Shown: positions 3,268-30,176, counted from the first letter of the stretch. The stretch is 64,000 bases of DNA from Spirochaetota bacterium (GCA_965205605.1 CBDBHE010000007.1:448001-512000); one strand, 5' to 3'. Made by a program: numbers and translations. Notes: generated by a model not told the origin, from the letters alone.

Positions 3268-4878
3268 TTGAAAGTTTTAATTGCCGAAGATAATCTTATT
3301 TCTCAAAAAATTCTCATTAGAAATTTAAAAAACCTTCAAATGAAACCCATTGTTCTCACTAATGGGATGAAAATTTATGAAAAATATAAAGAAGATAAAG
3401 AAATTAATTTTCTAATTTTAAACTGGTATATTCCTTTTTTAGAAGGGCCTTTGCTTTGTGAAAAAATTCGCAAATTAAAAACTAAAAATCGTCTAAGACC
3501 TTATATTATTATACTCACTTCTTGTAACTCAAAAAAAGAACTCATTTACGGCCTTAAATCAGGAGCCGATGACTTTATTAGCAAACCTTTTGACAAAGAA
3601 ATTTTTCTTGTCAGAGTCAATGCAGGAAAAAAAATTATCGAAGCTCAACATGATCATAAAACAGCTATAAATAAGCTTCAAGGACAATGTCAAAGACAAA
3701 TCGAAGATCTTAAATACGCTCAAATTCTTCAAAAAAATTTAAACACAATAAAACTCCCCTTACTTAAAACCATTGGAATTGAAAGCCTCTTTATGCCAAG
3801 TGATAAGCTTGCAGGTGATTTTTTTGCTATTCAAGTTAATCCTAAAGGACTTATTATTTTTATTGCTGACTATTCAGGTCATGGGATTAAAGTAGCAATG
3901 AGTGCTGCCATCTGTAAATCAGTCGCCGATCGTTATATGCATCTACTCCATCAAGGAAATATCGCTTCTTTTTTTTACGTCTTTAACAATGACCTTGTCA
4001 AATACATTAGAGATTTAGGTGAGTTTTGCACTGTGTTTACTTGTTTTATTGATTTACAAACCGACTTAATGCATTATTGCAATGCCAATCATCCTCTTCC
4101 TTTATTTTCAAGAAAAAAAAAATTATTAAAATATGAATCCACTCAAAATTTCTTTTTAGGATACGAAGAAAATACAAAATTTACGGTTAAAACCATTAAA
4201 CTAACCCAAAATGATAAAATTCTCTTTTATTCAGATGCTGCTTGTGAAATCATTAAAGAGGATGCCATTGTTTTTGATAAAAAAAAATTGGAAAAAACCT
4301 TTCTTTCTCTTATAAAAAAAAACTCTCCTAAGATATTAAAAGGACTTATAAAAAAATTAAAAAAAACAAATGGCTCTCTTCCTTTAACAGATGATTGTAC
4401 ACTTATTTTAATTCACAAAATGAACCCTTACAAAAAAACAAAAAGATACAACAAGTTTCAACAGCTTGACCCTGCCATTAAAGAATTAAAATTAGAGCTC
4501 ACCTCAAGAAATTACTCAGAAGATGAAATAGGAAAAATTATTACCTCCTATAATGAACTCTTCCTCAATGCTATCCAACACGGTAATCACTACGATCCTA
4601 ATAAAAAAATCACTATCCAATACCATATCGATTTTCAACAATGCCTCCTCATCGTTACCGATGAAGGACCAGGCTTTGATCTCAATCAAGTAAAAGATCC
4701 AACCGACCCCAAAATGATAGAAAAATTAATCCAATTAGAAGACATTGAAAATCTTTCTCGCGGTAGAGGCATCTGGATGATCAAAAAATACGCCACTTCT
4801 TTCTCCTTTAATAAAAAAGGAAATAAAGCCACCTTTCTTTTAAAAAGAAACGAAGATGAAACAAGCTTTCTATATTAA
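3268..4878 (+). CDS. REC - PP2C (SpoIIE/RsbU) phosphatase - HATPase (RsbW-like anti-sigma kinase) fusion
   Basis: REC: LIAED...ILTS...SKPF; PP2C: LAGDFF, IADYSGHG, YSD, DDCTL; HATPase: ELFLNAIQHG, DEGPGFD, GRG. Confidence 0.88.
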   Translation: MKVLIAEDNLISQKILIRNLKNLQMKPIVLTNGMKIYEKYKEDKEINFLILNWYIPFLEGPLLCEKIRKLKTKNRLRPYIIILTSCNSKKELIYGLKSGADDFISKPFDKEIFLVRVNAGKKIIEAQHDHKTAINKLQGQCQRQIEDLKYAQILQKNLNTIKLPLLKTIGIESLFMPSDKLAGDFFAIQVNPKGLIIFIADYSGHGIKVAMSAAICKSVADRYMHLLHQGNIASFFYVFNNDLVKYIRDLGEFCTVFTCFIDLQTDLMHYCNANHPLPLFSRKKKLLKYESTQNFFLGYEENTKFTVKTIKLTQNDKILFYSDAACEIIKEDAIVFDKKKLEKTFLSLIKKNSPKILKGLIKKLKKTNGSLPLTDDCTLILIHKMNPYKKTKRYNKFQQLDPAIKELKLELTSRNYSEDEIGKIITSYNELFLNAIQHGNHYDPNKKITIQYHIDFQQCLLIVTDEGPGFDLNQVKDPTDPKMIEKLIQLEDIENLSRGRGIWMIKKYATSFSFNKKGNKATFLLKRNEDETSFLY

Positions 4879-7324: not shown

Positions 7325-8071
7325 TTACCAATCATCAACCATATCATCGACATCTCGATTTCTTTCATCTTCAAGAAACATATCCGTTTGAGCTTCTAAT
7401 TGATCTAAGTAAAGATAATACTGACCGACTGTTTCTCTCATATCGCATTCAACATACATCGATGTCACATACAATCCTCTTCTTTTTCCTCTTTTAGAAG
7501 CAAAACGTGGATCACTTTGAACAATAGCTTCTCCAATCTGACCTGTTAATCGATTCCAGCCTGGAAAATTAAGCTTGCGACCTAATCTGATTTTATGTAA
7601 CTGACCTGTGATATCTCTAACAATCGCATACAAAACATGAGAATAATTTCTACCAGCAACCCAAACTGAAAGACTTTTAACAATTCCCGGTACATCTAGC
7701 TCCCTGGGTGGCTTAACTCCAAAAACAGCATTCCCTGTTTTAAAAAAATTAACTCTTGCTCCAAGACTATATTTATTTTTCTCAGGGTCAGCTTTTTTGA
7801 TTTCATCCGGCCCCCCTTCTCTTCTTTGAACAAAAATTAGACCCCAATCACGTGGCATTATCCCAACCCAAGAATCGGCATCTTCAAAATTATCTAACAA
7901 AATACCTCTGATACTTTCAAGACCTTTCTTACTGAGAATCGTCTCCTCCCCTTCTTTATTATTATCCCCCGTTGCTTGTTGATTATTATCTTGTGCTTTA
8001 ACAAAAACAAAAGAACAACTCAATAAGATAAAAAATAAACAAATTCGACTTATTATTTTTTTTACTTTCAC
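7325..8071 (-). CDS. flaA: Periplasmic flagellar filament sheath protein FlaA
   Basis: Signal peptide; LDNFED..W, IVKSLSVWVAGRNY, LNFPGW and YLYLDQL typical of spirochaete FlaA; AGGAGAGG SD. Confidence 0.85.
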   Translation of the reverse strand: MKVKKIISRICLFFILLSCSFVFVKAQDNNQQATGDNNKEGEETILSKKGLESIRGILLDNFEDADSWVGIMPRDWGLIFVQRREGGPDEIKKADPEKNKYSLGARVNFFKTGNAVFGVKPPRELDVPGIVKSLSVWVAGRNYSHVLYAIVRDITGQLHKIRLGRKLNFPGWNRLTGQIGEAIVQSDPRFASKRGKRRGLYVTSMYVECDMRETVGQYYLYLDQLEAQTDMFLEDERNRDVDDMVDDW

Positions 8072-8137: not shown

Positions 8138-8914
8138 TTATTTTTTCTCTTCTTCTTTTTTAAAACCACGTTCTCTATCAAAGAAAACATCCTGCATTTC
8201 AATCCCATCAAATTTACCATCATACAAATCTGTAAAAATTCTAAAATAATCTAAAAAGAAAGAAAAATAATCAACCCGTTCATCTTTTCCAGAATACACT
8301 CGAAATCTTCTAAAAAGAAGCCCCCCTTGTTCCTTAGCAATATACGTCCTTTGCAACGCAATCACCGCTGGAATCTTAACCTTAATGTGTTTCCAACCAA
8401 AGTATCTCAAATTAGAAACCTTAAAGTCATACGCATAACCAGCTTCATTTTCAAGTGTCACATAAAGATCGTAATTATAATTCGCTCCCCACGCCCACAA
8501 ATCTAAAGCCTTTAACTTTCCAGGAAACGCTTTCTTATAATTTGGACTCCCTTCTAAAGGAACAATATCAAACCAATTGTGCCCTTGTCTAGACCAAGAA
8601 GCATTCACTCCAAAAGATTTCTCTGACATTTCTCCAGGAACGTATTTTAAAGGCTTGGGTATGCCATCATAGTATCCCACTTTAAGTTCGTTTTCAAGAA
8701 AATACTTAGAGCCTTTAATTTCAAATTTTTCATTCTCTTCAAAGCTATACCAAACAATGGTTTTCTCATATTCCTTTTGCTCATTTTTCTGAGCAACCAT
8801 TTTTAAATTAATTATCGCTACAATAATTAAAAAAAATTTTATAAATTTTATAAAACAAGTAAAAATATTGTTTTTCATCATTCCCCCTACATTAAGAATT
8901 AATATTTTTTTCAT
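8138..8914 (-). CDS. flaA: Periplasmic flagellar filament sheath protein FlaA (second paralogue)
   Basis: LDLWAWGANYNYDL, LRYFGWK, FFLDYF; true start may be ATG ~8881. Confidence 0.82.
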   Translation of the reverse strand: MKKILILNVGGMMKNNIFTCFIKFIKFFLIIVAIINLKMVAQKNEQKEYEKTIVWYSFEENEKFEIKGSKYFLENELKVGYYDGIPKPLKYVPGEMSEKSFGVNASWSRQGHNWFDIVPLEGSPNYKKAFPGKLKALDLWAWGANYNYDLYVTLENEAGYAYDFKVSNLRYFGWKHIKVKIPAVIALQRTYIAKEQGGLLFRRFRVYSGKDERVDYFSFFLDYFRIFTDLYDGKFDGIEMQDVFFDRERGFKKEEEKK

Positions 8915-8971: not shown

Positions 8972-9001
8972 ATTATAATCTTATTCAGCTACAAGTGTCA
9001 A
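8972..9001 (-). promoter_or_regulatory. sigma70-type promoter of the flaA pair
   Basis: Minus strand TTGACA (9001-8996), 18 bp, TATAAT (8977-8972). Confidence 0.65.
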
Positions 9002-9054
9002 ATTTACTTGAAACTTGCTTAGTTGTAAAACTTATCGGATCATTTTTAAAAAAA

Positions 9055-10632
9055 CTAAATTAATTTAAGTATTTTTTCTCCTATTTGTTTAATAAAAGAT
9101 GCTAGCTTCGGGCCATCGTTTCGATTAATAAGAATTTGATAAAAAAATTTAAAAAAAATTTTACTTTCTAAAGAATGTTTTTTAATCATTTCATAAAGAA
9201 ATTTCGAAATTTCTTTTTCATTTACTTCACCTCCTCCATTTTCTATCCATCCTCTTACCTCTTTTAAAGCTTTTATATATTCCTTTGAAGCTTTAAGTCC
9301 ACTCACCTCTCTTTTTTCTTTATTTAATTTAAAAAGAAACTCCTTAGGTGCATATTTTTCAATCCAATTTAATGCACACTCAAAACGCTCTTTTAAAAAA
9401 ACTAAATCACTTTCTTGTTTTAATTCCTTTTTATAATAATTTAAAACACTATTCCACTCTCCCTCATTAATTTGAATAATATTACATAAATGACGAAACG
9501 AAGCTCTAAAAGGAATTTTTTCTTTCCTCTCCTCTAAACAAGAAAGCTCATAAATCCTCTTAATCTTCCCATACAATTTTTCAGAAACAACTTCTTTGCC
9601 ATAATATTTTTTCTCCATTCGATCAAAATCTTCATATATTTTCAAAACATCCAAATCAAAACTAATCGCAAATTCCACATTCGCTCTATAAGAGGCAAAC
9701 AAATACCTTAAAACCTGTCCCTCATACACCTCCAAAGATTCCTCAACTGTCACCACTTCTCCCTTACTCGAAGAAATCTTCCCCCCCCTCCCTTTAATCC
9801 TCACAAAGTCATACATCAAATAAACAGGTGCTTCATACCCAAACACTTTTCTAGCAATCTCTTTGGCCGTATCATACGATCCTCCCTCAGATGAATGGTC
9901 CTTACCCCCAGACTCAAAATCAACCCCCCACCGTTTCCATCTCATCGGCCAGTCCACTCTCCAAAGTAGTTTTATCCCCTTTTGCTTCTCATTTACTCCC
10001 TTATTTGTATATCCACATTCCTTACATTTAATTTCAATCTCCCCTTCCCTTGCCCCTAATCTAATTTTCACTTCATTCCTCAAACATTTCTCACAAAAAA
10101 TACTCACCGGCACCCAATCTTTACCCAAAGGCTCTCGTCGATATTGATTCAATATCCCCGTTATTTCCTTTCGTTTTGAAAGTGCTTGCTTAATTTCTTT
10201 AACATAAAAATTATTTTTATATTTCTCATACTGATACACAAACGTCGGCTTAATATCCAGCTTTAAAATCACCTCTTCCATTTTTTTCTCATGATACCTA
10301 GCATACGACTTCTCTTCTTCAAAAACATCCGGCACTTCACAGATCGGCTTGCCCAAATGACTTTTTAATAATTCTTGCTTTGGCATGTTTAAAGGCACTT
10401 TTCGAAACACATCATAATCATCCCAAAAAAATAAAAAACGTACCTTCTCGCCCATGTCCTCTAACGCTCTTCTAACAAAGTCAACCGTTACCAATTCTCT
10501 AAAATTTCCAATATGAACCGTCCCAGATGGCGTAATCCCACTGGCTAAAACATAAACTTCTTTCTTCCCTTTTTGCTTTACAATACGCTGGGCAATCTCA
10601 TCTGCCCAATGACTCTTTTTTTGATTTTTCAT
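9055..10632 (-). CDS. lysS: Lysine--tRNA ligase, class I
   Basis: GITPSGTVHIGN (HIGH-like), WRVDWPMRW, GGKDH, KISSSKG (KMSKS-like). Confidence 0.96.
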   Translation of the reverse strand: MKNQKKSHWADEIAQRIVKQKGKKEVYVLASGITPSGTVHIGNFRELVTVDFVRRALEDMGEKVRFLFFWDDYDVFRKVPLNMPKQELLKSHLGKPICEVPDVFEEEKSYARYHEKKMEEVILKLDIKPTFVYQYEKYKNNFYVKEIKQALSKRKEITGILNQYRREPLGKDWVPVSIFCEKCLRNEVKIRLGAREGEIEIKCKECGYTNKGVNEKQKGIKLLWRVDWPMRWKRWGVDFESGGKDHSSEGGSYDTAKEIARKVFGYEAPVYLMYDFVRIKGRGGKISSSKGEVVTVEESLEVYEGQVLRYLFASYRANVEFAISFDLDVLKIYEDFDRMEKKYYGKEVVSEKLYGKIKRIYELSCLEERKEKIPFRASFRHLCNIIQINEGEWNSVLNYYKKELKQESDLVFLKERFECALNWIEKYAPKEFLFKLNKEKREVSGLKASKEYIKALKEVRGWIENGGGEVNEKEISKFLYEMIKKHSLESKIFFKFFYQILINRNDGPKLASFIKQIGEKILKLI

Positions 10633-10678
10633 TCCCCAATCTCTTTTATCGTTAATTAGTTAAAATGATACCATCACT

Positions 10679-10725
10679 TAAAATAAACAAATTTAAATAA
10701 ACATTAAATAAGCATTAAGTAAATA
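10679..10725. repeat. Degenerate 11-bp direct repeats in the AT-rich lysS-rnj intergenic region
   Basis: TAAAATAAACA (10679), TTAAATAAACA (10693), TTAAATAAGCA (10704), TTAAGTAAATA (10715). Confidence 0.5.
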
Positions 10726-10905
10726 TTTGATTACTTTTATAAAAATTTTTCATAAAAATGAAAATTATTTAAATAAAAAAAAGAGTATTATGATTAAATC
10801 ACTATTAAACACAATGATTTTTTTATTTAAATTTTATTTAACACCTAAATATTCTTATGCTGGTAAATAAAAACCATTACTTAAAAAAAAACACTTATAT
10901 TATTA

Positions 10906-12543
10906 ATGTTTAAAAATAAAAATAAAATACAAATTCTTCCTTTAGGTGGTTTAGAAGAAATTGGCAAAAACATGCTTCTTATTAATTATAAAGATGAAAT
11001 CATTCTCATCGACGCTGGATTAAAGTTTCCCGATGAAAAAGGCTATGGAATCAATTATGTTTTAAACGATCCCACTTATCTTATTGCCAACAAAAAAAAA
11101 ATAAAAGCTCTTTTGATCACCCATGGTCATCTCGATCATATTGGAGGGATTCCTTTCTTACTTTCCAAGATTAAACTACCCATTTATGCCCATGGTTTTA
11201 CAAAAGCGATGATCCGAAAGACAATTGAAAAAACTTCCCATAAAAATAATTTTAAAATAATTTCTTTTGAAACCAACCAGTCTTTTAAAATTGGTAATCA
11301 CTTCTCGATTGAAGCCATCAAAGTTGACCACAGTATCATTGATGCTGTTTCCTTTGCCATCACTACCGAAGCCGGCACAATTATTCATACAGGTGACTAC
11401 AAAATAGAAAATAACACTAATAAAACAGATTTAGATCGTTTTAAACATTATGGTAAAAAAGGAGTTCTCGCTCTTTTAATGGATTCCACCAATGCCAATG
11501 TAGAAAAACAAGAAGGAACCGAATCCGTTGTTTACAACAATTTAGAAAAAATTATTACGAGTGCCAAAGGAAAAACCCTCATTGGTACTTTTTCAACTCA
11601 AATTAGGAGAATTGAAGCCATTCTAAATATTGCCAAAAAGTTGAATAAAAAAGTTGTCCTCAGTGGTCGTTCTATTTTAGAAAACGTCGATCTTGCTTTT
11701 GGGATGAATTACCTAAGTCAATACGAAAAACAAATCATTGACTTTAAAAGCATGAACAATTACTCTAGCCAAAACATTATTATCATTCTTACAGGCACTC
11801 AAGGGGAAGAGCAAAGTGCTCTTTATAAAATTGCTTATAATTATCATAACAATATTAAACTACAAGGTAACGAAACTATTATTTTCTCTTCATCTGTAAT
11901 CCCTGGAAACGAAGCTCCAATTTATAAAATCATTAATCTTCTTCAAAAAAAAGGGGTTGACTTGATCACCAATGAAAATTTCCTCGTGCACACTTCTGGT
12001 CATGCCAGTCAAGAAGAAATGAAAATTCTCCTTTCAAAAATTAAACCCAAATACCTCATCCCCGTTCATGGAGAATATCGACATTTATGTTCTCAACAAC
12101 AATTAGCTCTAAAAAGTGGAATTAAAGAAGAAGAAATTTTCCTTCTTGAAAACGGAAAAAAAATCGAGATTAGTTATCATTCTGGTATTCGTTTAGTCGA
12201 ACAAATAAAAGCAAAAGAAATTTATATTGATAGTGATTCATTACAAGAGATTAATTTTAAAAACCTTGAAGAAAGAAAACACCTCTCAAGGGTAGGTTTT
12301 TTGTCGATTGCATTTCATCCTCATAATTTTGAAGAAACGACGATTGATTTTATGGGTTTTTATACTAGAGAAAAAAAAGAACTTCTTCTTAAAGAAATTA
12401 AATATTTTCTTAAGAAAGAAATTTCAAACCAAATATCTAAAGATAAAAACCAACTTAAGAAAAAAATTAAAAACAGTTTGAAAAATTTTTTTGATTTAAA
12501 GAAAATAAAAACACCTATTTTTTCGATTCATTTAATTTTTTAA
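10906..12543 (+). CDS. rnj: Ribonuclease J
   Basis: LGGLEEIGKNM, THGHLDHIGG, HTGDYK, DSTNA, HTSGHA, PVHGE. Confidence 0.95.
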   Translation: MFKNKNKIQILPLGGLEEIGKNMLLINYKDEIILIDAGLKFPDEKGYGINYVLNDPTYLIANKKKIKALLITHGHLDHIGGIPFLLSKIKLPIYAHGFTKAMIRKTIEKTSHKNNFKIISFETNQSFKIGNHFSIEAIKVDHSIIDAVSFAITTEAGTIIHTGDYKIENNTNKTDLDRFKHYGKKGVLALLMDSTNANVEKQEGTESVVYNNLEKIITSAKGKTLIGTFSTQIRRIEAILNIAKKLNKKVVLSGRSILENVDLAFGMNYLSQYEKQIIDFKSMNNYSSQNIIIILTGTQGEEQSALYKIAYNYHNNIKLQGNETIIFSSSVIPGNEAPIYKIINLLQKKGVDLITNENFLVHTSGHASQEEMKILLSKIKPKYLIPVHGEYRHLCSQQQLALKSGIKEEEIFLLENGKKIEISYHSGIRLVEQIKAKEIYIDSDSLQEINFKNLEERKHLSRVGFLSIAFHPHNFEETTIDFMGFYTREKKELLLKEIKYFLKKEISNQISKDKNQLKKKIKNSLKNFFDLKKIKTPIFSIHLIF

Positions 12544-12566
12544 TAAATCTTACTTAGATTTTATCG

Positions 12567-12588
12567 TAATGTTCCACGTGGAACATTA
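12567..12588. promoter_or_regulatory. parS centromere-like site (ParB binding)
   Basis: Core TGTTCCACGTGGAACA (12570-12585) matches the bacterial parS consensus, inside a perfect 22-bp palindrome; parA/parB are 12 kb away. Confidence 0.9.
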
Positions 12589-12589
12589 T

Positions 12590-13420
12590 CTAAATATTTT
12601 TTAATTTTTTAACTTCTTTACTGAGTATTTTCATTCGAATACGAGTGATGCTATTTCTTCTTTTAGATAAAATTTTAAATTGAATATTTTTATAATGAAT
12701 AACTTGATTCACTTTTGGGATATAGCCTTCTTGGCCGATAACAAATCCACCGATGGTGTCCCCATTATCTTTTTTTAAATTGAGGTTAAATTGTTTGTTA
12801 ATATCTTCTAGATTCGTTCTAGCATCGATAGAGTAAGTGTTAATAGAGAGGGTTCTTATTTCCTCTTGTTCAGAATCAAATTCGTCTTGTACATCGCCTA
12901 TAATCTCTTCTAGGATGTCTTCCATGGTGACGATTCCTGAAAAACCACCGTATTCATCAACAATGATGGCCATATGGATTTTATTTTTTTGAAGATCTTT
13001 TAGGATATCGATAATCTTTCTAGATTCAGGTGAATAAAAGGGAATGGAGAGATATTTACTGAGATCGATTTTTCGGTTATTATTGGTTGTTAAGATGATT
13101 TTAAAGATATCTTTAATATGAATAATTCCTTTAATGTTATCGATATTTTCACTGTAGATAGGAATTCGGGAAAAATTTTTAGATTTGAGATGGAGTTCGA
13201 GTTCAGATTTTCGACATTGAGTATTAAAGGCAGCGACATCGATTCGAGGGATCATAATATCTCTTGCTAGGATAGTGTTGATATTCATAATGGATTCGAT
13301 GAGGGTGTGTTCATAAGGAGAAAAAGAAGATTTTTTAATTTTTTTTAAAATTTTTTCTTTTTGTTTTTGAAGGATTTTTTCTTGATTTTGAGGAAAAAGA
13401 AATTTAGACCATTGCATCAA
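12590..13420 (-). CDS. HlyC/CorC family CBS-domain protein
   Basis: DIMIPR, FSRIPIY, IVDEYGG.SGIVTMEDILEEIIG, C-terminal CorC domain. Confidence 0.9.
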   Translation of the reverse strand: MMQWSKFLFPQNQEKILQKQKEKILKKIKKSSFSPYEHTLIESIMNINTILARDIMIPRIDVAAFNTQCRKSELELHLKSKNFSRIPIYSENIDNIKGIIHIKDIFKIILTTNNNRKIDLSKYLSIPFYSPESRKIIDILKDLQKNKIHMAIIVDEYGGFSGIVTMEDILEEIIGDVQDEFDSEQEEIRTLSINTYSIDARTNLEDINKQFNLNLKKDNGDTIGGFVIGQEGYIPKVNQVIHYKNIQFKILSKRRNSITRIRMKILSKEVKKLKNI

Positions 13421-13865
13421 ATAAGCTCCAATTTAGTTTAATTTTATTTAAAATAATTTCTTGTTGTTGATAAATTTTTTCTAGTGACTTTTTTTTATAG
13501 TCGTGTCTTAAACCGTAAAGATGTAAAATTCCGTGAAGAATTGTTTCATAAATTAAAAAAGGAATGGTTTTTTTGTAGAGAGGAGCTTGTTTTAAGACAA
13601 CGTCTAAGCAAATAGCGATATCACCTGAGGGTTGGTTATTGAGCTTGGGTTGATCTGGAAATGAGAGGACATCGGTTACGTTATTTTTTTTAGTGAATTG
13701 GTGATGGAGGGTTTGCATTGTTTTAGAAGGTAAGAAAGCGATGTTAACCCAAAGAAGTTTTGATTGATAAGTTTTATTTAAAAAAGAAATCATTTTTTTA
13801 ACTTCTTTTTTAAGTTTTTTATGAGAGAAAAGATAGTGAGTTTGATTGATAATTTTTAGAGTCAA
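13404..13865 (-). CDS. ybeY: rRNA maturation endoribonuclease YbeY
   Basis: TDVLSFP, GDIAIC, HGILHLYGLRH. Confidence 0.92.
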   Translation of the reverse strand: MTLKIINQTHYLFSHKKLKKEVKKMISFLNKTYQSKLLWVNIAFLPSKTMQTLHHQFTKKNNVTDVLSFPDQPKLNNQPSGDIAICLDVVLKQAPLYKKTIPFLIYETILHGILHLYGLRHDYKKKSLEKIYQQQEIILNKIKLNWSLFDAMV

Positions 13866-13874
13866 GGGATTATG

Positions 13875-15659
13875 TTAATTATTTTTAAATTTTGGGAAGG
13901 AGATACCGAGCTCGAGGAGTTGATTATCGGTTGGTTTGGAAGGAGTTTCACTCATTAGGCAATGACCTTTTTGGGTTTTTGGGAAAGCAATCACATCTCT
14001 AATAGAAGAGGTTTCTTGCATGATGGCGATGATTCGATCGAGGCCAAAGGCGATACCTCCGTGGGGAGGGGTGCCGTAATTGAGAGCGTTTAGAAAAAAG
14101 CCGAATTTTTCTTTAATATCTTTATCTGAGAGATTGAGTAGGGAAAAGATTTTTTTTTGGAGATTACTATCGTGGATCCGAATGCTACCCCCACCGAGTT
14201 CTATTCCATTTAAAACTAGGTCGTAAGCTTGCGATTTAACAGAAGCGGGATTGGTTTCTAAAAGGGGGATATCGTTTTCTTGTGGCATTGTAAAAGGATG
14301 ATGAAATGAGTCCCATTTTTTTTCTTTTTCGTTATAGGTTAGGAGAGGAAAATCGGTGATCCAGAGGAAATTAAGTTTTTTTGAGTTGATGAGGTCAAGT
14401 TTTTTTGCGATTTGCAGTCGTAAGTTTGCTAGGGCGTCGTAGACGATAGGGGCTTTATCAGAGATAAAAAAGAGGATATCTCCGTTTTCAGCTTTGGAGA
14501 GGGTGATGAGGGCATTTAGCATAGATGGGGTAAAAAATTTGGTGATGTTGGACTGGAGCTTATTGTCTTGGACTTTCATCCAAGCAAGTCCTTTAGCTCC
14601 GAATTTAGAAACGAATGTGGTCAAGTCATCGATATGTTTTCGAGAGAGTTTTGTACTTGCTTGTTTAACGCAAATCATTCTAACGATGCCGCTATTGCTT
14701 AAATTTGTTTTAAAGACTTTGAAGCCACATTCTTTAATAATGGGTTGTGGGTTAAGGAGATGCATTTCAAAGCGAGTGTCGGGGCGATCGGTGCCGTAGA
14801 GCTTGATAGCGGTTTGGTAAGTCATTTTTTCAATGATAAGAGAAGGAGAAATTTGATGAAGGAAGGTTTTTTGAAGAGCGTTTAGGAAGATTGTTTCGAC
14901 GAGATTTAGGATTTCATCTTGTTGCATAAAGGAGATTTCGAGATCGATTTGGGTGAATTCGGGCTGACGATCGGCTCTTAAATCTTCATCTCGGAAGCAT
15001 TTGGCGATTTGGTAATATCTTTCTAGACCACTTACCATGAGGAGTTGTTTAAAAATCTGAGGAGACTGAGGGAGGGCGTAGAAGTCTTGTGGATTGAGGC
15101 GAGAGGGGACGATAAAATCTCTAGCTCCTTCAGGGGTGGTTTTGTTTAAAATGGGGGTTTCGATTTCGATGAAAGAGTTATCGTCAAAAGCTTGTCGAAT
15201 GGCTTTTAGAAAAGCGTGTCTTTTTAAAAGGTTTTGTCTGACTTTATTTCTTCTTAAATCTAAGAATCGATATTTTAATCGAATATCTTCGTTAATTTTT
15301 TCTTCACTATCGATGGGGAAGACAGGGCTGAGGCTTTTAGATAAAATTGTAAGTTGGTGGACTTCAAGCTCGACTTCACCGGTTTTAATGGCTGTATTAA
15401 TATTTTCTTTAGTCCTTTCGATGACGTTTCCTTTGACTTTGATGACAAACTCTGATCGAAGAGATTGAGCGTCTAAGTGAGCTTTTTTAGAAACTTCAGG
15501 GCGAAAGACGACTTGGCAATTACCAGAGCGATCTCGCAAGTCGATAAAAATCACTCCTCCATGATCTCGCCTTCGGTGAACCCAACCTGAGAGAGTGATT
15601 TCTTGCTTAATTTGTTTGAGGCTAAGGTCAATATTGTTGATTGTTTTGTAGGTGCTCAA
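13875..15659 (-). CDS. aspS: Aspartate--tRNA ligase
   Basis: GWVHRRRDHGG, ALPQSPQIFKQ, CFRDEDLRADRQPEFTQ, GIAFGLDR. Confidence 0.97.
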   Translation of the reverse strand: MSTYKTINNIDLSLKQIKQEITLSGWVHRRRDHGGVIFIDLRDRSGNCQVVFRPEVSKKAHLDAQSLRSEFVIKVKGNVIERTKENINTAIKTGEVELEVHQLTILSKSLSPVFPIDSEEKINEDIRLKYRFLDLRRNKVRQNLLKRHAFLKAIRQAFDDNSFIEIETPILNKTTPEGARDFIVPSRLNPQDFYALPQSPQIFKQLLMVSGLERYYQIAKCFRDEDLRADRQPEFTQIDLEISFMQQDEILNLVETIFLNALQKTFLHQISPSLIIEKMTYQTAIKLYGTDRPDTRFEMHLLNPQPIIKECGFKVFKTNLSNSGIVRMICVKQASTKLSRKHIDDLTTFVSKFGAKGLAWMKVQDNKLQSNITKFFTPSMLNALITLSKAENGDILFFISDKAPIVYDALANLRLQIAKKLDLINSKKLNFLWITDFPLLTYNEKEKKWDSFHHPFTMPQENDIPLLETNPASVKSQAYDLVLNGIELGGGSIRIHDSNLQKKIFSLLNLSDKDIKEKFGFFLNALNYGTPPHGGIAFGLDRIIAIMQETSSIRDVIAFPKTQKGHCLMSETPSKPTDNQLLELGISFPKFKNN

Positions 15660-15763
15660 AGTAATTTCCTGTAAAAAAAATGAAAGGCTGATTATACTAT
15701 TAAATAAAAAGTCTTTTTTTCTTTTGAAAAAGAAATTTTTGAAAAGAACAAGAGGAGGTTGGG

Positions 15764-17089
15764 TTAAGTTTTAGAGAGAATATTTTGAATGGTTTTTTCT
15801 AGGGGGCCATTGCTTTTGAATTCTTTTTTAATTTTGCTGGAACCGATAGAAACAGCGGAAGGAGTTTTCCCTCCTAAGTGATTACCAATTTCTGTGATTG
15901 AGAGGTCGGTGTACTCTCTGAGTAAATACATGCTGATTTGTCTGTAGCGGGAAATGTATCTGGAGCGAACTTTAGATTTAAGTTGAGAGAGGGAAATATT
16001 GGCATAATTTGCGAGAGCGAGAATGATACGCTCTGGAGAATATTTTCTTTTTTGGTTTTTATTATATAGCTGTTTGATATTATTGAGGCAAAAGTCTTCG
16101 GTGATGTCTTCTTGATAAATGTCTTTAAAAACAGAAAGGGTGTTGATAGCACCAATAATTTTTCTAATATCGGAGGGTAAATTTTCAGCCAAAAAAGAAA
16201 GAATGTCTTCGCTTAGGAGGAGTTGATTTTCACGAGCGATAAAGCGAATAATTTTTTTTTTATCTTCTGTATCACAAAGTTTAATTTCGATAATAGCGCT
16301 ACTAGAGAGGCGACTTTTAAGTCTTTCGTCTATATTTTGAAGATCGTTGGGTTCACGGTCACTACAAAAAACCATTTGTTTTTTTGAAGAGGTGATGGTA
16401 TTGAAGATATGAAAAAACTCAAGGCAACTTTTTTCTTTTCCAATAAAAAACTGAATATCATCAATGAGTAAAACATCCAAAGATTTATATTTAACCCTAA
16501 AGTCTCGGTCAGTGCCAAGAGAAATAGCTCTTGTAAACTCGCTAACAAATTCATTGGGATTAATGTAGGAGACTTTAAGAAAAGGAAAATGGGTTTGATA
16601 ATAATTACCAATTGCTTGGATTAAGTGTGTTTTGCCAGTCCCAATAGGCCCATAAAAATAAAGTGGGTTGGTAGCTCCTATTTTTTGAATGATTTTTTGA
16701 GCAAAATCGTAAGCGATTTTATTGACTTTTGTGATGACAAAACGATCAAAGGTATGATCTTTTTTTAAAGAGGTGTTTTGAAAAGAAGAAGAAGAAAAAG
16801 ATAGAGGAGGGTTGGAAGGAGAGGAGGGCTCATTGTTTGTGACAATTTTTAAGCTTAGTTTGGGGTGATGGCTTTTGAGGTGAGCTTCTATTTGTTTTAA
16901 GTAATTTTTATTAATTTTTTCTTTTTTAAGCTCGCTATTTGTTTTTAAGAAAATTACCCATTGATCATTTTTTTCATAAGCTAAGTCATCAAACCAAGTT
17001 TTTTTTTCGTGAGAAGAAAGAGACTGTTTGAATTGATGATAAACGTTTTTAAAAATAGAGGGGATGTCTAGATGGGTCATTAAAAACAA
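15764..17089 (-). CDS. dnaA: Chromosomal replication initiator DnaA (divergent domain IV)
   Basis: TFDRFV, NPLYFYGPIGTGKTHL (Walker A), LLIDDIQF (Walker B), RLKSR, RQISMYL; divergent from rpmH. Confidence 0.93.
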   Translation of the reverse strand: MFLMTHLDIPSIFKNVYHQFKQSLSSHEKKTWFDDLAYEKNDQWVIFLKTNSELKKEKINKNYLKQIEAHLKSHHPKLSLKIVTNNEPSSPSNPPLSFSSSSFQNTSLKKDHTFDRFVITKVNKIAYDFAQKIIQKIGATNPLYFYGPIGTGKTHLIQAIGNYYQTHFPFLKVSYINPNEFVSEFTRAISLGTDRDFRVKYKSLDVLLIDDIQFFIGKEKSCLEFFHIFNTITSSKKQMVFCSDREPNDLQNIDERLKSRLSSSAIIEIKLCDTEDKKKIIRFIARENQLLLSEDILSFLAENLPSDIRKIIGAINTLSVFKDIYQEDITEDFCLNNIKQLYNKNQKRKYSPERIILALANYANISLSQLKSKVRSRYISRYRQISMYLLREYTDLSITEIGNHLGGKTPSAVSIGSSKIKKEFKSNGPLEKTIQNILSKT

Positions 17090-17124
17090 ACACTCCTTTT
17101 TGTTTTTTTATAATATAACGGTAA

Positions 17125-17138
17125 GACTTTTAAAAGTC
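17125..17138. promoter_or_regulatory. 14-bp palindrome overlapping the putative dnaA promoter
   Basis: GACTTTTAAAAGTC; minus strand reads ATGACT-17 bp-TATATT upstream of an AAGGAG SD. Confidence 0.4.
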
Positions 17139-17328
17139 ATGGGGTAAATTTTAGCACTTTTTTAATCAATAAATGAGCTAAAAGGGAAGAAATTATACTA
17201 ATGAGAAAAAAGAAAAAACAATGGAGAAAAAATAATAGTTTGAGCATTTATTTATTTGAAAATTTAGGTATTTTCTTTTAATTAAAAAAAAACCTCTAAA
17301 AGTTGTTTTTTTAGGGATTTTTTTTTAA

Positions 17329-17358
17329 TTGACATGGAAGTTTTTTAAATGCTAAAAT
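17329..17358 (+). promoter_or_regulatory. sigma70 promoter of the rpmH operon
   Basis: TTGACA (17329-17334), 18 bp, extended -10 TGcTAAAAT (17353-17358). Confidence 0.65.
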
Positions 17359-17387
17359 GAATTTTTTTAAATGGAACCCTTGTTAAA

Positions 17388-17531
17388 GTGAAGCGAACAT
17401 ATCAACCAAGTAAAATTAAAAGAAATCGGAAGTGTGGTTTTAGAAAAAGAATCAGTACTTTAGGTGGGAAAAATATTTTAAAGAGAAGACGGAAGAAAGG
17501 AAAAGAACGACTTTCTTCTTCAGATGAGTAA
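17388..17531 (+). CDS. rpmH: 50S ribosomal protein L34 (missing from the ORF track)
   Basis: GTG start; [47 protein letters not shown]. Confidence 0.95.
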
Positions 17532-17832
17532 AAAAAAATTTTCTTTAAAAGAGTATTCGCTTCTTGTTAAGGAAGGAAAACGGCTTATTAATCGAGATTT
17601 AGTGATTTTTTATAAGGAAAGTAACAAAACGATTATTAAGGTTTCAGCTAAAAAAAAAGTGGGCAAGGCTTTTAAAAGAAACTATTTTAAAAGAGTCTTA
17701 AGAGATATTTTAAATAAGATTACTTATAAGCAATCTTATTTTGTTTTAGTGATTTGTCGAAATCCCATATCGTTGGGTTATTTTGATTTTAAAAAAAAAA
17801 TACGGGTATTTGTTAGAGAGCTTCTTTATTAG
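17524..17832 (+). CDS. rnpA: Ribonuclease P protein component
   Basis: [17 protein letters not shown] (RNR motif); lies between rpmH and yidC. Confidence 0.88.
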
Positions 17833-17915
17833 GAGTAAGGTTTTTCCTTACACTTTTTTTAAGTAAATTAAAAAATAAGGAAGACTCTAAATTGTTTTAT
17901 TTTAGGGGTCTATAA

Positions 17916-19643
17916 ATGAATAGAAATGATGGTTCGCTTGAAAGATGGCGTTTCCCTTTGGCGATTTTTCTTTCTTTTTTAACAATTTTTATTTGGTCTT
18001 ATTTAAATCGTTCTTCTGAAAAAGAAGAAGAGACGGTATCTAAAAAACAGTCAATTGTTAATAAAAAAGAGCGTGCTTTACAAGAGCAGGGGACTGAGAA
18101 GAAGTTGTTGATAGTAGAAGAGCCTTCTTTTAAAGAAAACGATGCGATTAAAAAAAATTTTGAGAGAGCAAAATTTTTTCAATTAGAAAATGATCAGTTA
18201 AAAATTGTCTTTAGTAGTTATAATGGAATCATTACACAAAGTATTTTAAAAGAGAAAGGAGAGGAAGCTTTTAGCTTTGATGGCAATAGCTTGCCTTTTT
18301 ATGAGAGTGGTAATCTTAGTTTTTATTCTGTTGAGCATAAAGGAGAGGATATTTTATTTGTGTTAAAAGAGAAGACAAAAGATCGTCTTGTTTTAGAGGG
18401 ACGAGTTAAGTTGTCTAAAAATAGATTTACGGTTAGGAAAGAATATTTTTTAAAAGATTATGAGCTTGGATTAAAGGTGACGCTTATTAATGGGGGAGGG
18501 GGTAATTTTTCAGGTAGTTATTATTTATTTAACGGTTCTTTTATAGGGGAAAAAGAAGTTGGAAAAAAAGATTTATTTAATATTGGAAAGATTTCTTATA
18601 ACATAAAGACAGACTTAGAAGATATTTTTCAGAGAGGATTTTTATCGATGTTTTCACAAGAGAAAACGCATGAAAATATTTTGAGCTTGGTGGATTGGAT
18701 TTCGATTGATAATCGTTTTTATGCCAGAATATTAAAAGGGAATCCTAGAGGGCATGAGGCGGAGTTTTTTAAAATTGAGCGTCGAGATGAAATACATCAA
18801 GTAGGAGCATATAAAGTTTATTTTAAACTAAGTGCTTTTGGAGCAGAATCGCAGCAATTTTCTTACTTTTTTTTCCCAAAAAAACGTGATTTATTAGATA
18901 CGTTTTATGATCAAAAAAGAGAGTATTTTTTTAATTTATTTAGACAAATGAGCTTGATGCGCATTATATCTAGTTGGATGTATTGGTTGTTGATGGGGAT
19001 TAATAGTCAGATCAATAATTTTGGCTTTGCCATTATTTTAATGACGTTAATGATTAAGATCATAACGTTTCCTTTAACGATGAAAAGTTATAAGTCGATG
19101 CATAAAATGCAATTTTTAGCCCCTAAGATGAACCATATTAAAGCACAATATAAGAATAATAAGCAAAAAGCGAATCAAGAGGTCATGGCGCTTTATAAAA
19201 AAGAGAAGGTTAATCCGATGGGAGGATGTCTTCCGATGTTAATACCAATACCGATTTTCATAGCTTTATATTCATTGTTTCAAAATATGGTTGAGCTTAA
19301 AGGGGAATCTTTTTTGTGGATTAATGATTTAACAAAACCAGATATTATTTTTAGCTTGCCATTTTCACTTCCTTTTTTAGGACAAGGGATTCATTTTTTA
19401 CCTATTTTGATGATGGTTTCTCAGTTTGTACAATCGTTTTTGACCCCACAGCCTCAAAATCCAAGTGCTGATGCGAGTGCGATGAAACAGCAAGCTTTTT
19501 TGATGAAGTATTTTATGCCAATTTTTTTCTTTTTTATTTGCTGGCCAATGCCGAGTGCATTAATTTTATTTTGGACCGCCCAAAATATTTTTTCGATTTT
19601 TCAATCATTTTTTTTATTAAAAAAAACTAAGTTGGAGGGATAA
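17916..19643 (+). CDS. yidC: Membrane protein insertase YidC
   Basis: NFGFAIILMT, KSYKSM, NPMGGCLPMLI, FLWINDL, MPSALILFW. Confidence 0.95.
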   Translation: MNRNDGSLERWRFPLAIFLSFLTIFIWSYLNRSSEKEEETVSKKQSIVNKKERALQEQGTEKKLLIVEEPSFKENDAIKKNFERAKFFQLENDQLKIVFSSYNGIITQSILKEKGEEAFSFDGNSLPFYESGNLSFYSVEHKGEDILFVLKEKTKDRLVLEGRVKLSKNRFTVRKEYFLKDYELGLKVTLINGGGGNFSGSYYLFNGSFIGEKEVGKKDLFNIGKISYNIKTDLEDIFQRGFLSMFSQEKTHENILSLVDWISIDNRFYARILKGNPRGHEAEFFKIERRDEIHQVGAYKVYFKLSAFGAESQQFSYFFFPKKRDLLDTFYDQKREYFFNLFRQMSLMRIISSWMYWLLMGINSQINNFGFAIILMTLMIKIITFPLTMKSYKSMHKMQFLAPKMNHIKAQYKNNKQKANQEVMALYKKEKVNPMGGCLPMLIPIPIFIALYSLFQNMVELKGESFLWINDLTKPDIIFSLPFSLPFLGQGIHFLPILMMVSQFVQSFLTPQPQNPSADASAMKQQAFLMKYFMPIFFFFICWPMPSALILFWTAQNIFSIFQSFFLLKKTKLEG

Positions 19644-19648
19644 AACTT

Positions 19649-20278
19649 ATGATGTATCTTGATTATGAAGCTAACACGGAAAAAGAAGCAATTCAACTTG
19701 CTTTGGAATCGTTAGGGCTTACAGAAGAGGATGTTCGTATTGAAATTTTGTCAAAAGAAAAAAAAGGGATTTTTGGAATAGGGAAGAAAGAAAAAGCAAC
19801 AATACGTGTTTATTATAAGGAGAAAAGTGAAATTAGTGGAGCTTTTGAAACGATTAAAACTTTTATTAAAATGCTTGATTCGCAGTCTCATACAGAAATT
19901 ATTTCACTTGATAGCAATCAATATCTTTTAAAAATTGATGGGACAGATTCTTCGCAATTAATTGGAAAAAATGGAAGAAGTTTGGAAGCGATTCAAAATA
20001 TTGTCACAGCTATTCTTTTAAAACAAGGAGATAAGTATCGTGTTAGTGTGGATGTAGACAACTATAAAGCTAAGCGGTATGGGTTAATTGTTAAAAAAGC
20101 TTTGTTTATGGCAAAAAAGGTTGTCAAAACAAAAAAGCCTATTTTACTTAAACCGATGAATTCTTATGAAAGGCGATTGGTGCATATGGAAGTGAGTAAA
20201 AAAGTGAAAGGAGTTTCAACACAATCAGAAGGAGATGGTCGTATTAAAAGTGTAAAAATTGTGCCAGTGGGTTCTTAA
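19649..20278 (+). CDS. jag: Jag/KhpB (EloR) RNA-binding protein
   Basis: Jag_N (EAIQLALESLG...KKGIFGIG), KH (LIGKNGRSLEAIQ), R3H (PMNSYERRLVH). Confidence 0.92.
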   Translation: MMYLDYEANTEKEAIQLALESLGLTEEDVRIEILSKEKKGIFGIGKKEKATIRVYYKEKSEISGAFETIKTFIKMLDSQSHTEIISLDSNQYLLKIDGTDSSQLIGKNGRSLEAIQNIVTAILLKQGDKYRVSVDVDNYKAKRYGLIVKKALFMAKKVVKTKKPILLKPMNSYERRLVHMEVSKKVKGVSTQSEGDGRIKSVKIVPVGS

Positions 20279-20285
20279 ACATTGA

Positions 20286-21680
20286 ATGGATCGTTTTGAT
20301 AAAACTATTATTCAGTTATCAACTCCTTATGTTATTTCAGCGATTCATATTATTCGTGTTTCAGGAAAACAAAGTCTTGATTTTTTAAAAAATCATACGC
20401 TCTTAAAAAGTATTATTGCAAGAAAGGTTTACTACACCTCTTTTTTAATTAATGGGAAAGTAATAGACCATATTTTATGCTTTTTTTTTAAAGAGCCTGC
20501 TTCATATACAGGCGAAGATATGCTTGAGATTCATTGTCATGGATCTCTTTTAGTTGTTAATGATATTTTAAAAGTAGGTGTAAAAGAAAATCTGATTCTT
20601 GCTGAAAGAGGGGAGTTTACCAGGAGAGCTTTTGTTAATGGCAAAATGGACTTAACTCAAGCAGAAGCTCTTAATACGTTCATTCACACTAAAAGTTTTT
20701 ACTTAAAAGAAAATTCTCTTAAAATCTTAGAACGGAAGAGTTTTTTTAGTTTTAAAGAAATTAAAAAGGAGATTCTTGAAATCTTGGCTTACTTAGAATC
20801 TTCTATTGAGTTTCCAGAAGAAGGCATTGAAGAGCTTGATGAAAGTAAAGAGAGTCTTTATAAGCGTTATCAACGCTATATTGAGAGGATAACGAATTAT
20901 TTTCAAACTATTAAAACGAATTATGAAAAAGGAAAAAAATTTGAAGAAGGCTTTCATTTAGCTATTATGGGTCGACCCAATGCAGGTAAGTCGACGTTAA
21001 TGAACGCATTACTTAGAGAAGAAAGAATGTTGGTTTCTGAGATTGAGGGGACGACAAGGGATTTTGTTAAAGAGAGTATTACAGTAGAGGGGATACCGGT
21101 TGTTTTATATGATATGACGGGGATGAGGAGTACGGAAGATCTTTTAGAAAAGGAAGGCATAGAGAAGTCTTTTAAAGCCTTGAAAAGGGTGGATTGGGTT
21201 TTGTATTTACTGTTTTCAGATCGCTGTTTTGAAGAGTTTATTAAGTATCGAGAGGTGTTTTCTAACAAGCAGGTACTGTTTTATCTTAGTAAAAATGATT
21301 TGATGTCTTTAGAAGTCGTAGAAGGATTTAAGCAAAAAGCAAAAGAGATGGGAGTGGATATTATAGGAAACTTTTCTTTAAAAAAAAATCATCAAGAAGC
21401 GGTGGATTTGATAGAGAAGGATTTGAAAAAAGTTTTAGAAAGTTTTTTTGATTTTCCAGCTAATGAGATGTCTCTTTTAAATGAAAGGCAGAAGAAAGTT
21501 TGTGAATTTATTTTGGAAAGCTTAGGTCGTGTAAAAGAAATGATTGGACTAAGGGAAAGCGAAGAAATTGTAAGTGAAGAGATACGCGCCTTGAATGAAT
21601 TTTTAGAAGAGCTTGATTTACAAGTTGGCAATGAAGAAATTTATAACACGTTGTTTCAATCTTTTTGTATAGGAAAGTAG
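20286..21680 (+). CDS. mnmE: tRNA modification GTPase MnmE
   Basis: SYTGED.LEIHCHG, GEFTRRAFVNGKMDL, GRPNAGKST, GTTRD, C-terminal FCIGK. Confidence 0.95.
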   Translation: MDRFDKTIIQLSTPYVISAIHIIRVSGKQSLDFLKNHTLLKSIIARKVYYTSFLINGKVIDHILCFFFKEPASYTGEDMLEIHCHGSLLVVNDILKVGVKENLILAERGEFTRRAFVNGKMDLTQAEALNTFIHTKSFYLKENSLKILERKSFFSFKEIKKEILEILAYLESSIEFPEEGIEELDESKESLYKRYQRYIERITNYFQTIKTNYEKGKKFEEGFHLAIMGRPNAGKSTLMNALLREERMLVSEIEGTTRDFVKESITVEGIPVVLYDMTGMRSTEDLLEKEGIEKSFKALKRVDWVLYLLFSDRCFEEFIKYREVFSNKQVLFYLSKNDLMSLEVVEGFKQKAKEMGVDIIGNFSLKKNHQEAVDLIEKDLKKVLESFFDFPANEMSLLNERQKKVCEFILESLGRVKEMIGLRESEEIVSEEIRALNEFLEELDLQVGNEEIYNTLFQSFCIGK

Positions 21681-21688
21681 TCTTTTTT

Positions 21689-24156: not shown

Positions 24157-24185
24157 TATTTAATAGTTTTTTAAGTTGAGAAAAA

Positions 24186-29838: not shown

Positions 29839-30176
29839 TGGAGATGGCGGGAGTCGAACCCGCGTCCAATAAGTGGTCCAATAATGTTCTACATGTTTAG
29901 TCTCTTATTTTAATTTAAACCCTTTGTTTGATAAGAGACAAAAAAAACAAAGAGTCGAGTTTTCTTTTTTTAAGCCCGTTGCTGAAAACAATTCAACGAA
30001 CCGATCCACACAAGAGTTATAACAAAAACATCACAACAGTGTCCTTTATAATGTTTCCGCGTAGCTATTAAATTAAGCTGCGAGCGCTAGATTTTCGTCT
30101 GCACTTATTGCGTTTTGCGTGTCGCAACGGCATGCTAATTATTTTTCCTTCTTACTGTCGAAGCCATTACATCCCC
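29839..30176 (-). ncRNA. ssrA: tmRNA (SsrA)
   Basis: 5' GGGGATGTAATGGCTTCGAC; 3' GACGCGGGTTCGACTCCCGCCATCTCCA; acceptor stem with G3.U; tag ORF 30102-30073 encodes (A)ADENLALAA*; CCA not encoded. Confidence 0.96.

Follow-up and report, generated by a model that had tools for sequence, protein, structure and literature searches.

An origin-type strand-composition switch in the 3' end of rnj, beside the only parS site and apart from dnaA, in a spirochaete genome

Where do replication forks diverge in a chromosome whose strand composition changes sign away from dnaA? The question is raised by a stretch of 64,000 nucleotides from a Spirochaetota bacterium (GCA_965205605.1, G000:C7:448001-512000; hereafter the window), in which the GC skew inverts near the end of rnj, the gene for RNase J (10906-12543, plus strand), next to a parS site (12570-12585) and not at dnaA (15764-17089, minus strand). 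The source genome, G000, amounts to 1.69 Mb in 8 contigs with 29% GC; contig C7, of 742,916 nt, holds the whole window. The window was assigned to a spirochaete because, by Pfam, it encodes two FlaA sheath proteins and a class I lysyl-tRNA synthetase. Our reading, to which we give a probability of roughly 70%, is that the forks diverge in the AT-rich tail of rnj and the 46-bp gap that adjoins it (12544-12589, between rnj and a convergent corC-like gene), at about 12.06-12.6 kb, abutting the single parS. The origin would have been kept with rnj, dnaA and parAB would have moved, and parS would be in its usual role.

In 1-kb windows the skew ranges from -0.09 to -0.56 over 1-11 kb and, irrespective of gene direction, from +0.15 to +0.48 over 13-23 kb. 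It crosses zero between the windows 12001-13000 (-0.036) and 12501-13500 (+0.159). An earlier note on this stretch gave hand counts for five lines of 60 nt, and all five are exact (4561-4620, C17/G4; 9781-9840, C24/G4; 12001-12060, C15/G5; 13021-13080, G16/C4; 15061-15120, G26/C6). The global cumulative GC-skew minimum of C7 is found at window position 12109; to the left of it 22 of 23 bins of 20 kb are negative, and to the right 14 of 15 are positive. The plus-strand skew at third codon positions (GC3 skew) is -0.80 in lysS and -0.44 in rnj, and it is +0.61 in corC, +0.59 in ybeY, +0.70 in aspS and +0.68 in dnaA. Noncoding DNA shows the same two types: the gap between lysS and rnj is of left-arm type (G14/C30), while the aspS-dnaA gap (G19/C7) and the dnaA-rpmH gap (G42/C23) are of right-arm type. 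Among the 8 contigs a V-shaped skew minimum is present in C7 only. Over the assembly, left-type sequence totals 820,655 b and right-type sequence 808,312 b, and the terminus may lie in C4, a contig of 58 kb with mixed skew. The strand-composition switch is real and far beyond chance.

The direction of the rRNA genes and a slight excess of genes on the G-rich strand are consistent with an origin at the switch and not with a terminus. Both rrs and rrl are on the plus strand, co-directional with the rightward fork, and the leading (G-rich) strand carries 634 of the 1169 open reading frames (ORFs) of at least 150 aa. The other 535 (46%) are on the lagging strand, a weak gene-strand bias despite a very strong mutational skew. 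Lagging-strand placement of a gene is unremarkable in this genome, which tolerates dnaA, aspS and ybeY on that strand.

To locate the switch more finely, a change point was fitted to GC3 and intergenic composition, and it falls at 12285-12291. Because the tail of rnj is rich in Lys and Glu, with G-only codon endings, we also tested codon usage conditioned on the amino acid, using leading and lagging usage trained per amino acid on 1169 long ORFs outside C7:450-475k. In this codon change-point model the maximum-likelihood switch from lagging to leading type is at 12287-12290, with a 2-unit support interval of 12140-12323 and a 100:1 support interval of 12056-12500, the latter being our putative fork-divergence interval. 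Compared with the best position, the log-likelihood is lower by 6.2 units for a switch at parS, by 38.2 for the lysS-rnj gap (10633-10905), by 171.5 for the aspS-dnaA gap (15660-15763) and by 223.4 for the dnaA-rpmH gap (17090-17387).

The log-likelihood ratios (LLR, positive for leading-type usage) of the individual genes follow the same division. The last gene that clearly belongs to the leading strand of the left arm is lysS (9055-10632, minus strand, LLR +69). Over all of rnj the LLR is -31.9, with about 440 codons (~1.3 kb) of lagging type followed by about 100 codons of leading type; in blocks of 40 codons the first 11 are all lagging-type, and from 12226 on the values are +2.5, 0.0 and +2.5. 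On the right arm four minus-strand genes lie on the lagging strand, namely the corC-like gene (12590-13420, LLR -33.8), ybeY (13404-13865, -18.0), aspS (13875-15659, -114) and dnaA (-51.9), and their lagging-type usage is as strong as any in the genome. From rnpA through mnmG the LLR is positive and the genes are of leading type. The switch therefore sits in the 3' end of rnj, about 70-510 bp to the left of parS and off-centre from it, and 3.2-4.5 kb from dnaA. Here the tail of rnj has 15-20% GC across ~250 bp.

In the earlier note the inversion was centred on parS, with the cumulative minimum expected at ~12.6 kb and the forks diverging at or very near parS, 3.2 kb past the 3' end of dnaA. 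The part that stands is the neighbourhood: by composition the switch is a few hundred bp from parS and not at dnaA. The centring does not stand, as both the computed minimum and the GC3 change point are inside rnj. The same note was right that the switch is away from dnaA, since both gaps flanking dnaA are more than 170 log units worse and the skew minimum is outside them, and right in placing dnaA, aspS and ybeY on the lagging strand.

What lies beside the switch? As the note had said, the 46-bp convergent gap contains a perfect parS, the 16-bp palindrome TGTTCCACGTGGAACA, which extends into a 22-bp palindrome, TAATGTTCCACGTGGAACATTA; a T-run follows the extended palindrome. It is the sole match in the window at up to 3 mismatches, and in the 8-contig assembly the sole match at up to 1 mismatch to TGTTNCACGTGNAACA, which we take to be the 16-bp palindromic parS consensus. 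The partner genes are encoded as well, parA at 24186-24953 and parB at 24950-25858, both on the plus strand, so that a consensus parS, 70-510 bp from the switch, is found together with ParA and ParB. That parS is close to the origin is a general rule in bacteria, and proximity alone thus needs no special mechanism. In its usual role parS would load ParB and, through ParB, SMC, and would organise and segregate the newly made origins; ParB presumably acts in this way at the present origin.

Is the arrangement a peculiarity of one genome? GTDB holds nine species genomes in the order, G000 to G008, and in seven of them (G000, G001, G002, G003, G004, G006 and G008) a parS or parS-like site lies just 3' of rnj. 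A consensus or 1-mismatch parS is within ~100 bp of the rnj 3' end in G000, G001, G002, G004 and G006, and within ~1 kb in G003 and G008. In G000, G001, G002 and G006 these rnj-adjacent sites are the only ones of the genome at up to 1 mismatch. The exceptions are G005 and G007, where the interval between 2 kb upstream and 3 kb downstream of rnj has no parS-like site even with 3 mismatches allowed; G005 has none at up to 1 mismatch in its entire genome. The linkage of rnj and parS is specific to the order: none of the 70 rnj loci of other phyla (the near-full-length ones among 80 fetched) shows it, and neither does any of 28 loci belonging to other Spirochaetota families or of 80 metagenome loci. 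Closer relatives of G000 were not found in searches of genomes and metagenome contigs, which returned only distant phyla at no more than 40% identity.

The skew follows rnj too. For the four relatives that are single contigs, and taking these to be circular, we computed the genome-wide skew in 20 stretches of 20 kb each, and in all four the switch from minus to plus brackets rnj. In G001 the switch is at 422-528k and rnj at 487k, with dnaA ~106 kb away; in G005 it is at 1536-1600k with rnj at 1548k and dnaA ~292 kb away; in G006 at 2630k-60k with rnj at 14-16k and dnaA ~722 kb away; and in G007 at 564-634k (noisy) with rnj at 593k and dnaA ~538 kb away. Locally, G001 and G008 have their cumulative minimum within rnj, G005 has it 0.6 kb upstream of the start of the gene, and in G007 the sign changes at the rnj 3' end. 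The earlier note had proposed the same analysis in related genomes, and an origin-type switch is again associated with rnj. Codon LLR was dropped as a positioning tool in the relatives, as rnj appears leading-like in G001, contradicting its GC3 skew of -0.41; in genomes of weak skew this measure is probably confounded by expression-linked codon use. The outgroups G019 and G015 have a classical switch at dnaA. In another Spirochaetota family, dnaA of G024 lies in 40 kb of uniformly negative skew (G024:C1:564001-604000), with no switch within +/-20 kb.

The genome G002 shows the two parts of the locus separately. Its contig C48 reads flaA-flaA-lysS-rnj-parS and then ends, and its skew is negative throughout. 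On C12 a parB...rpmH series is divergent from dnaA-x-ybeY-corC, and the skew stays positive along the whole contig and does not switch at the rpmH-dnaA gap. The dnaA/rpmH...parB block of G000 is the mirror image of that in G002, and it is inverted relative to G004 as well. The lineages of G000 and G002 are thus separated by an inversion that abuts the rnj-parS junction.

Some further observations concern the DNA next to rnj in the relatives. In G007 an 80-bp gap after rnj, at the skew switch (L142:3085-3174), contains four direct and one or two inverted copies of a ~13-nt repeat, T(A/T)AA(A/C)GAAATTTAA, perhaps serving as an iteron of the origin or in place of a centromere; the ~13-nt word is too common in G000 for testing there. 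Prompted by the four G007 copies, we considered TAAAGAAATT-like repeats around the parS of G000 and set them aside, the word occurring 1.3 times per kb in that genome and its local cluster being unexceptional. G008 carries at least two tandem duplications of the rnj 3' end, together with two palindromes (L137, G008:C46:110397-114881). Of these palindromes downstream of rnj, TGTTTCATCTGAAACA is parS-like and the second is TTGTTCCATAAGGAACAA; two consensus parS sites are found further on. In G002 two diverged copies of a ~90-nt unit come directly after parS (C48, L048, 14197-14568), followed by the contig end, and the repeat may be the cause of the assembly break at the putative origin. The parS of G004 (local ~29800-29900), between parB and rnj, lies inside a GC-rich hairpin flanked by runs of A and T that looks like a bidirectional terminator; a second parS-like site of this genome, GGTTCCACGTGGAACT, is within parB.

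If dnaA is not at the switch, is its product still an ordinary initiator? The DnaA of G000 has 441 aa and all Pfam domains, and residues 14-437 align with PDB 8btg_A at 215 bits. A full-length dnaA was found in 30 of the 31 genomes searched. However, the recognition motif has changed: where 8btg_A has GGRDHTTVIHA, G000 has GGKTPSAVSIG (residues ~405-416), and the motif is replaced likewise in all eight order genomes aligned. Its other forms are GGKTAGAV in G002, GNKTAAAV in G005, GGKSPAAV in G007, GGRSVSAI in G001, GGKSPSAV in G004 and GGKTPSAI in G006 and G008. Four outgroup spirochaetes retain D/N/A-H-S/T-T (e.g. GGKDHSTV, GDRDHSTV and GGKAHTTV), and a fifth, G013, has NHST followed by M. 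In the alignment the Arg that reads TTA, at what we take to be its position, appears conserved, and the numbering of E. coli DnaA was mapped onto the DHTTV motif. In E. coli, according to a review (PMC5742627), the TnCACA half of the box is read by helix 434-451, and box binding is lost with T435M. Judging from the protein sequences, the DnaA boxes of the order are probably non-canonical.

Scans for DnaA boxes should be read in this light, because with a diverged recognition motif the failure of a canonical-box scan says little. There is no TTATCCACA at up to 1 mismatch in 10018-13464, nor in 13474-19314, which includes the dnaA-rpmH gap. With four box variants, no cluster of at least 4 sites per 400 bp was found near the locus, and none at the lysS-rnj gap or at dnaA. 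At up to 2 mismatches, box sites in the window are at chance level (255 vs 230 +/- 15). A patch in corC/ybeY, 12954-13473, has 11 sites at up to 2 mismatches and is tied for densest in the genome, but was treated as chance or coding bias: it is unconserved, the top clusters in the relatives being tandem repeats elsewhere, and the word derived from it, TTATCNAYA, shows no enrichment in G000 or in the neighbourhood of rnj in the relatives. Other dense box-like patches are found at C7:23000-23520 (11 sites at up to 2 mismatches in 520 bp) and C2:86247-86578 (4 sites at up to 1 mismatch in 330 bp). Near the switch two stretches are AT-rich, the coding 3' end of rnj (12397-12546, 15% GC) and the lysS-rnj gap (273 bp, 16% GC), and no boxes were seen beside either. 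The former, which has the highest AT content of any 150 nt adjoining the switch, is a candidate unwinding element. The latter contains six copies of TTAAATAA; for TTAAATAA(A) this corresponds to a Poisson p of ~1e-8 against the genome-wide frequency, uncorrected for local AT content.

We infer that the switch is the site of initiation. A bidirectional origin would then lie at the rnj 3' end and in the adjoining gap, beside the sole centromere, and DnaA would act in trans. That its gene lies on the lagging strand, only 3-4.5 kb rightward of the origin, would be happenstance in G000: dnaA is near the origin there because an old dnaA/rpmH...parB block, in inverted orientation relative to G002 and G004, adjoins the rnj-parS junction. 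In the order as a whole the origin would travel with rnj, and dnaA and parAB would have dispersed.

Several points weigh against this. Skew is indirect evidence for an origin, and bacterial origins do not usually extend into the coding 3' end of a gene. No recognisable cluster of DnaA boxes is present at the switch in scans of the window, the genome and the relatives with TTATCCACA and three variants, and searches for k-mers and shared motifs in rnj 3' ends and upstream of dnaA returned only parS, low-complexity AT and coding-like words. In the relatives the skew is weak, with a resolution of about one gene or worse; the cumulative minimum of G006 is 8.5 kb upstream of the rnj stop; G004, at 63% GC, is uninformative, its GC3 skew tracking the coding strand; and the composition of rnj varies among them, from lagging-like (G001, G002, G007) through intermediate (G006) to neutral (G005, G008). 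Further, related genomes are non-independent observations, the circularity of the single-contig genomes is assumed, and the adjacency of the G002 contigs C48 and C12 is deduced, not seen.

A bolder proposal goes beyond the location of the origin. The order may have re-specified its origin as a module consisting of the rnj coding 3' end and the centromere, read by a remodelled DnaA (DH[S/T]TV to [T/S][P/A/V][S/A/G]A[V/I]) with a new box, ParB-parS being a possible helper where parS is kept. We regard this as doubtful and offer it tentatively. If true, this would be a case of a bacterial origin that lacks canonical DnaA boxes, shares its DNA with a gene and is physically joined to a centromere.

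Could the origin be on the other side of rnj? In this alternative, which we think distinctly unlikely, oriC is the 273-bp gap between lysS and rnj, or the origin is bipartite and flanks rnj, with one part upstream and unwinding near parS, so that the switch is either shifted by ~1.4 kb or the mark of the unwinding half alone. The gap is the largest and most AT-rich noncoding stretch near the switch, is among the lowest-GC 150-nt windows of the first 40 kb and carries the TTAAATAA copies. A long AT-rich region upstream of rnj was present in 7 of 7 genomes inspected, and in GC-rich G004 this region holds the lowest-GC 150-nt window of 40 kb. The neutral or leading-like rnj of G005 and G008 and the intermediate one of G006 also favour an origin upstream of the gene. 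Against it are the C-rich plus strand of the gap in G000, the lagging-type usage of the first ~440 rnj codons in 11 of 11 blocks, the change point 38.2 log units below the best, the lagging-like rnj of G001, G002 and G007, and the lack of a DnaA-box cluster in the gap. The bipartite variant fares differently, as the composition data fit it and an origin at the rnj 3' end alike. The earlier note had argued that there is no room for a classical oriC. This is correct for the 46-bp gap, but leaves aside the AT-rich tail of rnj and the AT-rich gap 1.4 kb to the left.

Bipartite origins flanking a gene have precedents in incAB-dnaA-incC of B. subtilis and oriC1-dnaA-oriC2 of H. pylori. The likeness to our locus is positional only, with AT-rich noncoding DNA upstream of a gene and putative unwinding downstream of it. 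Here the flanked gene is rnj and not dnaA, and no DnaA boxes were identified on either side.

Returning to an origin at the rnj 3' end, does parS take part in choosing it? This was the view of the earlier note, in which the origin is at or beside parS, and ParB-parS helps to choose or fire it. The only parS of the assembly is indeed 70-510 bp from the switch, all consensus-like parS sites of G001, G002 and G006 are at the rnj 3' end, and the diverged DnaA motif leaves room for an unconventional recognition of the origin. There is also a precedent in chromosome II of V. cholerae, where, as described in PMC3688505, replication control depends on ParB, the centromere is beside the origin and ParB2-ori2 coupling influences initiation. 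That chromosome, however, is plasmid-derived and has RctB as its initiator, while in the order two relatives have no parS at the switch. It is these two, G005 and G007, keeping the switch at rnj without a parS-like site, that leave parS-specified initiation unsupported. In addition, G008 has its parS sites 1.3-1.6 kb away from the cumulative minimum, the log-likelihood in G000 of a switch placed exactly at parS falls 6.2 units short of that for a position inside rnj, dnaA is full-length in nearly all genomes searched, and an origin-proximal parS, being general in bacteria, is no sign of a special mechanism. We consider coupling of this kind very unlikely.

The last question is whether the skew between the switch and dnaA could be an artefact of assembly or of recent history. 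One Logan contig of 16,845 nt spans 9000-14801 and a second spans 16245-18000, both with 0 differences, so the check for local misassembly that the note had called for comes out clean; the contigs come from two runs of one sample, possibly the assembly's own source. Misassembly at the junctions is unlikely. In the read layout a joint from 13816 to 16907 was ignored, with one contig per run and a 21-nt side, below the reliability hint, and the loose contig ends in this region stem from short contigs of low depth. Nor can a recent inversion explain the pattern, because an inversion leaves the composition of the coding strand unchanged, and corC, ybeY, aspS and dnaA are fully lagging-type.

A classical origin in the dnaA-rpmH gap, with the skew of 12.6-17.1 kb put down to misassembly or to the corC-dnaA block having recently been inverted or translocated, would have the ideal gene orientation (dnaA...corC leftward, rpmH...parB rightward) in a place where inversions have occurred, as seen from G002 and G004, but it is close to refuted by composition and in our view extremely improbable: a change point in that position falls 223 log units below the best, the gap shares the G-richness of its neighbours on both sides and has no DnaA box at up to 1 mismatch, the corC-dnaA coding strands have an equilibrated lagging-type usage that would place them on the lagging strand before a recent inversion too, G002 has no switch at its own rpmH-dnaA gap, dnaA is 106-722 kb from the switch in four relatives, and Logan contigs bridge both junctions.

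How does the locus compare with known origins? In many bacteria the origin region is rpmH-dnaA-dnaN, with parAB-parS ~10 kb away. G000 resembles it in having rpmH, rnpA, yidC, jag, mnmE, mnmG, rsmG, parA and parB divergent from dnaA, and in G002 and G004 parS is just beyond parB. It differs in having the switch at the parS/rnj end instead of the dnaA end, in the absence of dnaN after dnaA and in the lack of canonical boxes. Of the usual marks of oriC, then, DnaA is encoded, the skew switch is not beside dnaA, and a DnaA-box cluster was not found in a test that the diverged DnaA weakens.

Among spirochaetes, the origin of Borrelia burgdorferi has reportedly been mapped physically at the skew switch and is said to be at dnaA/dnaN. 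Like the present genome, Borrelia has a very strong skew and an oriC-proximal parS, and its ParB recruits SMC (PMC9712426). Its parS, however, belongs to a par locus some kb from the origin, while in the order studied here the switch is unlinked to dnaA and, in G000, is a few hundred bp from parS.

A further spirochaete for comparison is Brachyspira. An earlier prediction of its origin was based on dnaA (PMC2897892), whereas GC skew and Ori-Finder placed the origin without association to dnaA (PMC3532143). A skew-defined spirochaete origin apart from dnaA is common to both, the separation being 3.2-4.5 kb in G000 and ~106-722 kb in four relatives. As PMC3532143 describes, rearrangements pivot around the origin, and the transfer-messenger RNA (tmRNA) and rRNA genes are origin-proximal; the corresponding positions in G000 are 29.8 kb for the tmRNA and 59 kb for rrs. 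The Brachyspira origin, however, is described there as lying between rrs and rrf-rrl, with tmRNA and tRNAs, while rrs and rrl of G000 are both 47-50 kb to the right of the switch. Brachyspira is also a different lineage in which the genes at the origin vary between species, and that text reports no conserved rnj-parS junction.

Origins of spirochaetes unlinked to dnaA (Brachyspira, PMC3532143) and origin-proximal parS (Borrelia, PMC9712426) are thus already known. Our literature search found no report linking rnj, parS and an origin, none on origins in Brevinema, which was a guess at the lineage, and no earlier report of a switch tied to the rnj 3' end throughout an order, of a near-fusion of switch and sole parS, or of an accompanying change in the DnaA motif. 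In practical terms, origin prediction or genome numbering based on dnaA would misplace the origin by 3-5 kb in G000 and by 100-700 kb in relatives, and the numbering would assign the intervening genes to the wrong replication strand. The order is a compact natural case in which the switch stays with rnj and abuts the centromere, and the initiator has a changed recognition motif. It makes two questions testable, namely the target of a DnaA with a remodelled helix and the existence of a bacterial origin partly in coding DNA beside parS. It is most useful as a well-defined setting in which to find out what the remodelled DnaA recognises.

The gene assignments in the window were made mainly with Pfam. 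The two flaA genes (7325-8071 and 8138-8914, minus strand; FlaA, E 2e-21 and 9e-19) code for flagellar sheath proteins and are of leading type in the left replichore, with LLR +14.6 and +20.9. Class I lysS matches tRNA-synt_1f (E 3e-118), and rnj, divergent from it, matches RNase_J_b_CASP, Lactamase_B, RMMBL and RNase_J_C. The corC-like gene has CBS and CorC_HlyC domains, the endoribonuclease gene ybeY matches YbeY, aspS matches tRNA-synt_2, GAD and the anticodon-binding OB domain, and dnaA matches Bac_DnaA, Bac_DnaA_C and DnaA_N. Beyond the divergent dnaA-rpmH gap (298 bp, the position of a classical oriC), the genes rpmH, rnpA, yidC, jag, mnmE, mnmG, rsmG, parA and parB (17388-25858, plus strand) were assigned with Pfam and tblastn self-hits and lie on the leading strand of the right arm; parA is of ParA type (AAA_31/CbiA), and parB has ParB_N, HTH_ParB and ParB_C. 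Further to the right are the tmRNA gene (29836-30176, minus strand), 17 kb from the switch, the 16S rRNA gene rrs (59019-60546, plus strand) and the first 1886 positions of the 23S rRNA gene rrl (62135-64000, plus strand), which is cut by the window end; all three are on the right arm, no more than 50 kb from the switch.

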